A stretch of DNA of 64,000 nt from a virus: the IMG/VR virus record IMGVR_UViG_3300045970_000794, positions 1 to 64,000 of that record; one strand, 5' to 3'. Position 1 is the first letter of the stretch; each line of letters opens with the position of its first letter. Shown here in pieces: positions 40,425-41,870 of the stretch. A program made the translations under genes and the position numbers. The notes under the pieces were generated by a model. It was not told the origin of the DNA. It was given only the letters and a program-made list of their open reading frames with translations, and did no database searches.

Positions 40425-40498
40425 TAGCCTCGGTGGGATTCGAACCCACAAAATTGTGCTTCTAAGGCACACACGTATACCGATTCCATCACGAAGCC
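40425..40498 (-). tRNA. tRNA with Leu anticodon UAG but a short (5-nt) variable loop
   Basis: GGCTTCG-TG-ATG-GAATCGGTATA-CGT-G-TGTGC-CTTAGAA-GCACA-ATTTT-GTGGG-TTCGAAT-CCCAC-CGAGGCT-A. Confidence 0.65.
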
Positions 40499-40519
40499 AA
40501 ATAACCATTTATCTATTTG

Positions 40520-40594
40520 TAGTCCCGATGGGATTCGAACCCATAATTTTACAAATTTTAAGCTTGTTGTGTCTGCCAATTGCACCACGAGACC
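40520..40594 (-). tRNA. tRNA with Leu anticodon UAA, short variable loop
   Basis: Acceptor GGTCTCG/CGGGACT; anticodon arm ACAAG-CTTAAAA-TTTGT; T arm ATGGG-TTCGAAT-CCCAT. Confidence 0.65.
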
Positions 40595-40600
40595 ATTTTG

Positions 40601-40695
40601 TCGTATAAGTGAGAATCGAACTCACATGGACTACCGTAAGGTAGTAAGCCCTCTCCCCATGTTTTGGATAGCGTCTGCCATTTCGCCATTATACG
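40601..40695 (-). tRNA. type-II-like tRNA-like RNA, 95 nt, with no clean anticodon arm
   Basis: Acceptor CGTATAA/TTATACG, D arm GCG-AAATGGCAGA-CGC, variable hairpin ACTACC-TTAC-GGTAGT and T arm GTGAG-TTCGATT-CTCAC. Confidence 0.35.
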
Positions 40696-40700
40696 TTTTG

Positions 40701-40785
40701 TTGGGGTACTCGGATTCGAACCGAGATTATACTTCTCGTCTTCACTTTGTAAGAGTGAGATGTTTAACCATTACACCATACCCCA
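40701..40785 (-). tRNA. tRNA-Val(UAC) with a 16-nt variable region
   Basis: TGGGGTA-TG-GTGT-AATGGTTAA-ACAT-C-TCACT-CTTACAA-AGTGA-[AGACGAGAAGTATAAT]-CTCGG-TTCGAAT-CCGAG-TACCCCA-A. Confidence 0.55.
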
Positions 40786-40792
40786 ATTTTTG

Positions 40793-40866
40793 TAGCCTTG
40801 GTGGGATTCGAACCCACAAAATCTCGCTTTTGAGACGAGCACGTATACCGATTCCATCACAAGGCC
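40793..40866 (-). tRNA. tRNA with Leu anticodon CAA, short variable loop (same scaffold as 40425..40498)
   Basis: GGCCTTG-TG-ATG-GAATCGGTATA-CGT-G-CTCGT-CTCAAAA-GCGAG-ATTTT-GTGGG-TTCGAAT-CCCAC-CAAGGCT-A. Confidence 0.65.
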
Positions 40867-40903
40867 AAAATAACTCCAATACGTCAATGAACTTTAAATT
40901 CTG

Positions 40904-40979
40904 TGGGAACTAAGAGATTCGAACTCTTGACCTTCTGGGTGTAAACCAGACGCTACTGAACCAGCTGAGCTAAGCTCCC
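40904..40979 (-). tRNA. tRNA-Val(UAC)
   Basis: Acceptor GGGAGCT/AGTTCCC; anticodon arm TCTGG-TTTACAC-CCAGA; T arm AAGAG-TTCGAAT-CTCTT. Confidence 0.75.
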
Positions 40980-40984
40980 CTTTG

Positions 40985-41004
40985 AGTTGGTGACTGGATT
41001 CGAA
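40985..41004. repeat. 20-bp direct repeat, left copy (= 3' end of tRNA-Cys)
   Basis: agttggtgactggattcgaa is identical to 41785-41804. Confidence 0.8.
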
Positions 41005-41053
41005 AGAAACTTTTAACCAACTCAATATATTTATAAATATAAACTTATTTCTT

Positions 41054-41728
41054 ATGATACCACTTTACACTCAAACAGAATATAATAACGCTAAATCAAT
41101 TGATAAGTTATTATGTGAATGTTATGTATGTCACAAGCCTTTTTTAGCTGAAAAACGCAGTATTAATTATTCTTTAAAAAAAACTAGAAATACTTGTCTG
41201 TTTTGCTCTAAAAAATGTAGAAAAATTAATGACACTACTAGTTTATTAGTTAATTGTTTACAATGTGGTGTTGAATTTACTAAAATTTTATCCGAAACTA
41301 AAAGGCATCCAAATCATTTCTGTACTCAATCATGCGCCGCAACTTATTCCAATACGCATAAAACAAATGGTAGTCGCCGTTCTAAACTTGAGATATTGCT
41401 TGAACAACAATTAACTCAATTATACCCATTATTAGACATAGATTACAATCAAAAATCAGCAATCAATTCTGAGTTAGATATTTACATTCCATCACTTAAT
41501 TTAGCAATTGAATTGAACGGCATTTTTCATTACGAGCCAATCTATGGTGTTAATAAACTAAATCAAATTAAAAACAATGATATTAGTAAATCAAAAGCAT
41601 GTCATGAAGTTAAAATTGATTTATGTACTATTGATGTATCCCAACAATCATATTTTAAACCATCAACATCACAAAAATATCTTGATATCATAATCAATAT
41701 TATCAAAGAACGTTTATTAACTTTTTAG
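41054..41728 (+). CDS. endonuclease-like protein: Cys-rich N-terminus plus a PD-(D/E)XK (DUF559/Vsr-like) C-terminus
   Basis: ...SELDIYIPSLNLAIELNGIFHY...; plus-strand gene inside a minus-strand tRNA island. TATTTATAAATATAAA lies upstream. Confidence 0.65.
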   Translation: MIPLYTQTEYNNAKSIDKLLCECYVCHKPFLAEKRSINYSLKKTRNTCLFCSKKCRKINDTTSLLVNCLQCGVEFTKILSETKRHPNHFCTQSCAATYSNTHKTNGSRRSKLEILLEQQLTQLYPLLDIDYNQKSAINSELDIYIPSLNLAIELNGIFHYEPIYGVNKLNQIKNNDISKSKACHEVKIDLCTIDVSQQSYFKPSTSQKYLDIIINIIKERLLTF

Positions 41729-41784
41729 TCGGCTTTACCCGCTTTCGACAACCACCACGTGAAGGTAAGTTAACTTAGGTCGTC

Positions 41785-41870
41785 AGTTGGTGACTGGATT
41801 CGAACCAGCGTAGACTCTCGTCTTTAACAGTTTTGCAGACTGCTGCCTAATACCGCTCGGCCACACCAAC
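41785..41870 (-). tRNA. tRNA-Cys(GCA) with a Ser/Leu-like long variable arm
   Basis: GTTGGTG-TG-GCC-GAGCGGTATTA-GGC-A-GCAGT-CTGCAAA-ACTGT-[TAA-AGAC-GAGA-GTCT-AC]-GCTGG-TTCGAAT-CCAGT-CACCAAC-U73. Confidence 0.6.

Follow-up and report, generated by a model that had tools for sequence, protein, structure and literature searches.

Short-arm leucine tRNAs and long-arm cysteine, glycine and valine tRNAs in a large phage genome: families and probable cognate charging

By the textbook rule a long variable arm is found in bacteria on the tRNAs for leucine, serine and tyrosine only, and on all of these. The tRNA array in the first 64,000 nucleotides (hereafter the window) of the IMG/VR virus record IMGVR_UViG_3300045970_000794 departs from this rule in both directions: three tRNAs with leucine anticodons have short variable loops, and tRNAs with cysteine, glycine and valine anticodons have long variable regions. 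Which amino acids are such tRNAs charged with, from which scaffolds do they derive, and why would a phage retain them? The whole record is a phage genome of 362,102 bp with direct terminal repeats and a G+C content of about 30%; it has 46 Rfam tRNA matches, every one on the minus strand and within 24-77 kb. Its host is probably a member of the Bacteroidota, as pointed to by a type-IX-secretion sorting domain on one window protein. We consider that the unusual tRNAs are functional and cognately charged on remodelled scaffolds (probability about 0.7) and, with slightly less confidence, that this is the best explanation of the locus as a whole. Structures, family conservation, covariation and discriminator statistics are the observed basis of this reading, and from them we infer the charging.

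Structures of the unusual tRNAs

The tRNA genes were called with ARAGORN and with Infernal, using the Rfam covariance model RF00005, and both programs gave the same tRNAs with the same anticodons, all on the minus strand:

40424/5-40498, minus strand: Leu(UAG), 57.2 bits; variable loop AUUUU of 5 nt, A73, CCA not encoded
40519/20-40594, minus strand: Leu(UAA), 51.9 bits; variable loop AAAAUU of 6 nt, A73
40792/3-40866, minus strand: Leu(CAA), 57.2 bits; variable loop AUUUU of 5 nt, A73
40700/1-40785, minus strand: long-arm Val(UAC), 58.2 bits; 16-nt variable region AGACGAGAAGUAUAAU, A73, class-I-type D arm
40903/4-40979, minus strand: canonical Val(UAC), 59.8 bits; 5-nt variable loop, A73; ordinary twin of the long-arm Val
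41785-41870, minus strand: long-arm Cys(GCA), 54.1 bits; 16-nt variable region, U73, class-II D arm of the Tyr/Ser type
25452/3-25540, minus strand: long-arm Gly(UCC), 49.5 bits; 16-nt variable region, U73, G1-C72, C2-G71 and G3-C70

A first-pass annotation of this DNA had recognised the leucine anticodons UAG, UAA and CAA on short-loop tRNAs, and both ARAGORN and the Rfam model bear this out; covariance folding did not move the anticodons to different positions, and the agreement of the two programs excludes misplaced anticodons. All three loops had been described as 5 nt long, which is right for Leu(UAG) and Leu(CAA) and has to be changed to 6 nt for Leu(UAA), the sole correction to the description. 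The scaffold that two of the three were said to share is that of Leu(UAG) and Leu(CAA), which are identical at 63 of 75 positions and have the D arm, variable loop and T arm in common. The long variable regions reported for Cys(GCA), Gly(UCC) and Val(UAC) were each measured at 16 nt, and the canonical Val(UAC) reported beside the long-arm one is indeed there, with its 5-nt loop.

The marks of leucine identity, that is A35, A73, A15:U48, and G18G19 with A20a at the leucine spacing, are found in all three Leu tRNAs. What is absent is the canonical class-II arm of at least 10 nt, the variable loops being of 5, 6 and 5 nt. Their D loops, AAUCGGUAU and AAUUGGCAG, fit the GGAAUUGGUAGAC type, and the variable loop ends in U. 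The D-arm motif of T5-type phages, UGAYGGAAYNGGYAUACGU, is exact in Leu(UAG) and Leu(CAA) and occurs as a variant in Leu(UAA), whose D arm, GUGGUGCAAUUGGCAGACAC, closely resembles that of canonical bacterial tRNA-Leu. The ARAGORN and Rfam calls found no intact long-arm Leu tRNA in the genome.

The long-arm tRNAs carry the identity elements of the amino acid that their anticodon specifies, as had been proposed from discriminator, acceptor pairs and anticodon. Cys(GCA) has the anticodon and the U73 of tRNA-Cys, and in place of a class-I variable loop of 4-5 nt it has a 4-bp hairpin, AGAC-GAGA-GUCU. Gly(UCC) has the bacterial tRNA-Gly set C35, C36, U73, G1-C72, C2-G71 and G3-C70; it lacks the class-I variable loop and also the D/T-loop contacts G18G19/U55/C56, its D loop, AGUCUGCUCGA, being without GG and its T loop reading UUGAAAU. 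Val(UAC) has the A35, C36 and A73 of tRNA-Val. In all of the odd tRNAs the acceptor stem is of 7 bp and the T stem of 5 bp, which differs from the 8/4 or 9/3 branch of allo-tRNAs, and the anticodon loop is a canonical one of 7 nt with U33 and a purine at 37. The genome has further examples: a long-arm Asn(GUU) at 65811-65897 adjoins a canonical Asn (the pair spans 65811-65976), and there are two Trp(CCA) tRNAs with variable regions of 12 and 22 nt.

Families of the short-arm and long-arm tRNAs

Single-sequence minimum-free-energy folds were uninformative for these tRNAs and covariation was used instead. The odd features are not due to chance, because conserved relatives exist elsewhere and covariation of the stems was measured for the short-arm Leu, long-arm Val and long-arm Cys families; such relatives were found for every odd tRNA but Leu(UAA), which was not separately traced.

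The short-arm Leu family is large and mobile and has long been annotated in databases. A blastn search of GenBank phages with the stretch from Leu(UAG) to Leu(UAA) returns annotated tRNA-Leu genes of 74-77 nt, tRNA-Leu(TAG) among them, at 80-86% identity in T5-like, Vequintavirinae, Vibrio and Aeromonas phages; one of the annotated genes, used in turn as a query, matches 339 GenBank phage records (BF23, T5 derivatives and Felixounavirus among them), nearly all annotated as tRNA-Leu. A scan of IMG/VR with the D-arm pattern gave at least 125 tRNAs from at least 119 loci. Among the 125 members listed, every one has a leucine anticodon (UAG 71, CAA 33, UAA 16, CAG 4, AAG 1), and 118 are 74-77 nt long and thus short-armed. 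In an alignment of 82 distinct short-arm Leu sequences (A3), the three from the window included, 99.3% of the cells are paired and 18 of the 20 stem pairs show compensatory changes, and no shuffle or slid register approached these values. In A3 neither U48 nor A73 varies, and neither was imposed by the search pattern.

The closest known systems are the tRNA-Leu(UAG/CAA/UAA) genes of T5, BF23, Felixounavirus, Vequintavirinae and the T5-like phages of Vibrio and Aeromonas (for example MZ501109.1 78677-78753 and tRNAL1 of AJ604530.1). Like the window tRNAs, they have A73, a variable loop of 5 nt with U48 at its end, the D arm GAYGGAAYNGGYAUACGU, and leucine anticodons only, and they are 80-86% identical to the window Leu(UAG) and Leu(CAA). 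Unlike them, the window copies have no encoded CCA and begin with G1-U72, the host of the phage is probably one of the Bacteroidota and not a Proteobacterium, and all three Leu isoacceptors are short-armed with no intact long-arm Leu beside them. When the anticodon was masked and the variable arm removed, the nearest neighbours of Leu(CAA) were short-arm Leu tRNAs in 15 of 15 cases; those of Leu(UAA) were Leu tRNAs in 9 of 15, six of these with a long arm. As read from the sequences, the short-arm Leu tRNA is a leucine scaffold after loss of its arm, with the Leu-type D loop, A15:U48 and A73 retained. An independent arm loss is that of animal mitochondria, in which the leucyl-tRNA synthetase (LeuRS) charges arm-less tRNA-Leu via A73 and A14.

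The family is also carried by bacterial assemblies, mostly within long tRNA arrays such as those of Nostoc. In the trn operon of Anabaena, a horizontally transferred array, 23 of 26 tRNAs are aminoacylated in vivo (PMC8421152), the presence of a short-arm Leu in the Anabaena 7120 array, or among the 23, not being confirmed. Several Clostridia assemblies (L254, L273, L338, L348, L349, L351, L359 and L361) have a solitary short-arm Leu(CAG) of 74 nt, with CCA encoded, that stands outside any tRNA array. Arm-less Leu tRNAs may also belong to bacterial chromosomes or their prophages.

Conserved relatives of the long-arm Val, Cys and Gly tRNAs likewise occur among other large phages. The variable-region motif of the long Val recovers from IMG/VR contigs 26 Val(UAC) tRNAs of 84-89 nt and one Met(CAU); in the Val alignment (A1) 99.5% of the cells pair, compensatory changes occur at 15 of 21 pairs, and the D arm, of class-I type, does not vary. 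Nine further long-arm Cys(GCA) tRNAs were found in phage contigs, all nine with U73, and in five contigs the long Cys and the long Val lie 0.24-1.6 kb apart. The Cys alignment (A2) has compensatory changes at 18 of 20 pairs and an invariant U73, and the variable arms of this family are hairpins that differ in sequence. For Gly(UCC) a homolog (L233:3374-3461) has an identical acceptor stem and a near-identical variable region. Its D loop is AGUGGUCGA and its T loop UUCGAAU, against AGUCUGCUCGA and UUGAAAU in the window; the oddity of the window loops could be a compensating swap of G19:C56 to C19:G56, or damage.

A pattern drawn from the 5' half common to the window Cys and the long Asn of the genome matches 31 tRNA-Tyr(GUA) with A73 and CCA, one Ser(GCU) and 11 long-arm Asn(GUU); most of these Asn tRNAs have G73, and most lie on contigs of 98-435 kb. 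Since the pattern otherwise finds true tRNA-Tyr, the cores of Cys and Asn appear to be Tyr-like with anticodon and discriminator changed. In the nearest-neighbour analysis the Leu tRNAs of the window group with Leu, the long Val falls inside its own family, the long Cys between Cys and Tyr, and the long Gly between Ser and Gly. By these comparisons the long-arm tRNAs derive from several unrelated families: (i) the long Val is read as a class-I body with a conserved 16-nt insert; (ii) Cys and Asn as Tyr-like class-II cores with altered anticodon and discriminator; (iii) Gly as a Ser-like core bearing a Gly acceptor stem. What the first-pass annotation described as an apparent swap of variable-arm classes between tRNA families is thus no reciprocal exchange; the two phenomena are separate, and each is conserved.

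A few cultured phages have annotated members of the long-arm families. Searches of GenBank phages gave no match for the window Cys with its downstream element, nor for the Gly tRNA, and with the long Val only two uncultured huge-phage records were found. The 89-nt tRNA-Asn(GUU) of phiKZ (AF399011.1 269557-269645) has a class-II D arm and a short variable hairpin, as here, together with the cognate G73, and an Asn tRNA of this kind occurs in the window phage at 65811-65897. The 87-nt tRNA-Lys(CUU) of Caulobacter phage CcrBL9 also has a class-II D arm and a short hairpin, with U73 instead of A73. The isoacceptors concerned are thus Asn and Lys in these phages as against Cys, Gly and Val in the window. 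Both cases are known from record annotation, and we found no paper commenting on the arm of the phiKZ or the CcrBL9 tRNA. Likewise no paper on phage short-arm Leu or long-arm Cys, Gly, Val or Asn tRNAs was found in the full-text literature searched, which lacks most subscription journals and the T5 tRNA papers of the 1980s. A further long-arm class-I family is present in T5-like phages: about 20 T5-like IMG/VR loci (L067, L091, L109, L125, L133 and some 15 more) have an Ile(UAU) of 90-95 nt with A73 and a conserved long variable arm around CCAGAUUAGCG.

Probable charging, decoding and a possible reason for the class change

A census was made of 2,098 unique tRNAs parsed from 240 phage loci. 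In it, the discriminator tracks the anticodon and not the structural class. It is U in all long-arm Cys (9/9), Gly (3/3) and Thr (16/16), A in all long-arm Val (21/21) and Ile (23/23), and G in all long-arm Trp (4/4) and in 11 of 14 long-arm Asn; short-arm Leu has A in 136 of 137. For comparison, true Ser has mostly G, true Tyr and Leu have A, and short-arm phage Cys has U73 in 67 of 67. In loci chosen without regard to Leu, 12 of the 53 Leu tRNAs have the class-I shape, and the same shape is rare among Ser (2/117) and Tyr (2/84). The seryl- and tyrosyl-tRNA synthetases (SerRS and TyrRS) use the variable arm, and frequent arm loss confined to Leu is what would be expected of tRNAs that must still satisfy host synthetases.

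The determinants of E. coli LeuRS are A73, A15:U48, G18G19 and A20a, and leucylation is uncorrelated with the sequence or folding of the arm, arm-less variants being still active (PMC9976931). As the short-arm Leu tRNAs keep A73, A15:U48, G18G19 and A20a, host LeuRS should leucylate all three, reading the retained elements and ignoring the arm. In Sf14, a phage of Felixounavirus type, the tRNAscan isotype models put Leu first for Leu_TAG, Leu_CAA and Leu_TAA (PMC12482277), their short-arm type not being confirmed. The three window Leu tRNAs jointly read all six leucine codons, of which UUA makes up 64% in the phage.

The long-arm Cys, Gly and Val, and the Asn and Trp elsewhere in the genome, would be remodelled scaffolds with an added arm; the anticodon and discriminator are kept, and for Gly the acceptor pairs too, so that the cysteinyl-, glycyl- and valyl-tRNA synthetases (CysRS, GlyRS and ValRS) should charge them cognately. 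An adjoining ribozyme resembling that of hepatitis delta virus (HDV-like) may cut the 3' end of tRNA-Cys. An effect of the arm class on charging, suggested in the first-pass annotation, finds no support in the identity marks. In the genome there is no match to the synthetase families PF00133, PF00587, PF00152 and PF01406, which jointly span Leu, Ile, Val, Met, Ser, Thr, Pro, Gly, His, Asp, Asn, Lys and Cys (the Tyr/Trp and Arg families, among others, were not searched), and a private phage-encoded synthetase is rejected as far as these four families go.

Several points weigh against cognate charging on remodelled scaffolds, or against the evidence for it. The identity rules come mostly from E. 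coli, and the host here is probably one of the Bacteroidota. With A73 and a pair of the A15:U48 type, the long Val could be subject to competition from LeuRS, and a long arm could hinder the class-II synthetases, which approach on the variable-arm side. Gly(UCC), with its aberrant D loop and its T loop UUGAAAU, may function poorly. That the Leu D arm does not vary in A3 was partly imposed by the search pattern, and the invariance of the Val variable region was forced by its own pattern. Finally, the class change could be neutral.

This last point leads to the alternative that survives best, although we think it unlikely: the tRNAs would be functional and cognately charged, and arm length would simply drift wherever a synthetase ignores the arm, in arrays that evolve fast as genes duplicate and recombine and homing endonucleases act. 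Such drift is favoured by sister tRNAs distinguished by arm length alone, for example a 75-nt Cys (L054:1336-1410) that has the anticodon arm of the 86-nt Cys of the window, and initiator-like Met tRNAs of 72 and 85 nt; by the density of homing endonucleases in the array; and by the restriction of common arm loss to Leu, the one class-II case whose synthetase is known to dispense with the arm. On the other hand, the Val variable region is constant over 26 contigs while the stems vary freely, which is weak evidence in a pattern-selected set; long arms amount to about 19% of the class-I isotypes in Val-pattern contigs against 2.4% in Leu-pattern contigs, which suggests lineage-specific retention; and a long-arm tRNA is retained next to a canonical one that shares its anticodon, Val in the window and Asn at 65811-65976 in the genome.

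If retention is selective, a possible reason is that host nucleases which read the shape of a tRNA act poorly on the phage copy. In tRNA-Tyr the variable arm is where Septu and retron-Eco7 PtuAB cut, and the tRNA-Tyr of T5 is resistant owing to its distinct variable loop (PMC13096335). The targets of AriB, the nuclease of the PARIS system, are Lys(UUU), Thr(UGU) and Asn(GUU), and the enzyme depends on parts of the tRNA body beyond the anticodon arm (bioRxiv 10.1101/2025.02.04.636281); Lys, Thr and Asn are all present among the long-arm phage tRNAs of the census. By analogy with these systems, the effect on nuclease recognition proposed in the first-pass annotation is plausible, and we put forward an adaptive anti-nuclease step as a tentative proposal. 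In T5 the tRNA-Tyr (versus retron-Eco7/Septu PtuAB) and the Lys, Thr and Asn tRNAs (versus AriB) differ from the host copies in the parts that the nuclease reads, which for tRNA-Tyr is the variable arm itself (PMC13096335). Those resistant tRNAs have point changes or another arm sequence, whereas the structural class has changed in the window tRNAs.

A bolder form of the proposal, which we regard as doubtful, is that large phages keep a systematic shape-shifted set, with Leu arm-less and Cys, Gly, Val, Asn, Thr, Trp, Lys, Ile and Met armed and each with just those marks that its host synthetase requires, that is invisible to nucleases reading class or shape. If true, structural class itself would be a battleground between phages and bacteria, and the enzymes evaded would be of the PtuAB/Septu type, which cut variable arms, and of the AriB type, which read class-I bodies. 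It is in any case a testable idea on why phages carry tRNAs, which may be to have chargeable yet nuclease-resistant copies.

We consider it improbable that SerRS, TyrRS or LeuRS load the class-II-shaped tRNAs, so that Cys, Gly and Val codons are partly read otherwise, as with a long-arm Val(UAC) carrying leucine. A precedent exists in the nev-tRNAs of nematodes (PMC3333845), which like the allo-tRNAs of bacteria (PMC5389517) join a class-II shape to a class-I anticodon, as the long-arm tRNAs of the window do. The cores are class-II-like as well: the window Cys and the Asn family match the Tyr-finding pattern (31 Tyr, 1 Ser, 11 Asn), five Ser tRNAs are among the nearest neighbours of the long Gly, and the long Val has two LeuRS determinants, A73 and the A15:U48-type pair.

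However, nev-tRNAs keep leucine identity and are charged with leucine, whereas the window tRNAs carry the discriminator of the amino acid of their anticodon and not that of Ser (G), Tyr (A) or Leu (A), with U73 in 28 of 28 long Cys, Gly and Thr; allo-tRNAs combine the 8/4 or 9/3 branch with serine identity, whereas the acceptor/T branch is 7/5 here. Moreover, Cys is without both TyrRS determinants, A73 and U35, the variable stems of 3-5 bp are shorter than Ser arms, a neighbouring HNH gene uses its conserved zinc-finger Cys codons normally, and the genome gives no sign of recoding. Mischarging is most open for the long Val; Cys and Gly carry U73, not the Leu or Ser discriminator.

That the tRNAs do not decode at all, being nuclease decoys, carriers of amino acids off the ribosome or decaying pseudogenes, is also very unlikely: the same array does hold tRNA-like elements without a usable anticodon loop and a split tRNA-Leu, Gly(UCC) has odd D and T loops, and overexpressed phage tRNAs may inhibit AriB (10.1101/2025.02.04.636281), but the anticodon loops are canonical, with 7 nt, U33 and purine 37, the anticodon stems covary, the anticodons of short-arm Leu are all leucine ones (125 of the 125 listed), which is sensible only if the anticodon is used, and the three Leu tRNAs cover the six leucine codons, including UUA with its 64% share.

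The arm-class rule is broken both ways, with identity marks kept, in the window and in hundreds of other tRNA arrays of phages and mobile elements. These arrays give an evolutionary read-out of synthetase tolerance, arm loss being confined to Leu, whose synthetase is known to do without the arm, and the arm being gained where anticodon and discriminator dominate identity. Tractable carriers are the short-arm Leu of T5/FelixO1-type phages (E. coli, Salmonella), the Asn of phiKZ (Pseudomonas) and the Lys of CcrBL9 (Caulobacter), and the remodelled scaffolds may serve as tRNA chassis in engineering.

Neighbouring elements and gene content

Three other elements of the array, all on the minus strand, adjoin the tRNAs:

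41716-41784, minus strand: candidate HDV-like (theta-type) ribozyme, RF02682, 25.5 bits with the gathering score at 44, E = 0.035 when 1.5 kb was searched
40603-40698, minus strand: tRNA-like element, by sequence reading and fold; Leu-type class-II body with D arm UGGCGAAAUGGCAGACGC and a long variable hairpin
39768-40312, minus strand: split class-II tRNA-Leu, by sequence reading; anticodon loop interrupted by an HNH endonuclease reading frame

The HDV-like match was not recovered in a 24-kb search. It starts at 41784, the base directly after U73 (41785) of tRNA-Cys; P1 (7 bp), P3 and P4 are present in the minimum-free-energy fold, and the P2 pairing of GUUAACUU with AAGUUAAU was read by eye. 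Theta ribozymes trim tRNA 3' ends in Bacteroidota phages, for which the criterion is a cleavage site within 5 nt of the tRNA 3' end (PMC10879173), and the element at 41716-41784 lies within that distance. It is a candidate theta-type ribozyme only, which may be of the published tRNA-trimming kind. The last 20 nt of tRNA-Cys, TTCGAATCCAGTCACCAACT, are duplicated at 40985-41004 and 41785-41804 on the minus strand, and the two copies flank the HDV-like element together with a plus-strand open reading frame at 41054-41728. The arrangement looks as if a mobile cassette had been inserted into the Cys T loop, bringing a spare 3' end.

Two tRNA-like elements, at 40603-40698 and 40316-40420 on the minus strand, combine class-II bodies of the Leu type with well-formed acceptor and T arms, and both have AAAACAU at the place of the anticodon loop and no usable anticodon loop. 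Neither was detected by the tRNA model, 40603-40698 giving no hit at E <= 0.1. The split gene at 39768-40312 is the only long-arm Leu gene of the genome and is probably inactive; its HNH protein matches phage homing endonucleases, and its acceptor stem begins with G1-U72, as in the short-arm Leu copies.

Homing endonucleases are dense within the tRNA array. Among the window proteins are an RNA ligase of the Rnl1 type and an HD-plus-kinase protein, which are counted in favour of the adaptive anti-nuclease step, and a CCA-adding enzyme is encoded at 70167-70541 in the genome. A Pfam search of the ten open reading frames flanking the array gave no accepted domain, with a single weak viral match below threshold. 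The genetic code of the genome is the standard one, and stop-codon recoding was rejected: coverage by long open frames is 0.751, against 0.765 and 0.774 when TAG or TGA is translated. At 71732-71807 there is nevertheless a tRNA(CUA) of the amber-suppressor type, although nothing in the genome points to TAG recoding. Across the genome no tRNA-Ser gene was called with confidence, while Ser accounts for 6.8% of codons; a low-scoring class-II Ser(UGA) candidate at 67758-67842 appears with relaxed settings only. Outside the window, an Arg tRNA cluster at 65128-65598 has Rfam hits of 79-81 nt that ARAGORN missed or misread, and one of these seemingly has an ACG anticodon arm, an almost absent D arm and a variable region of 22 nt.

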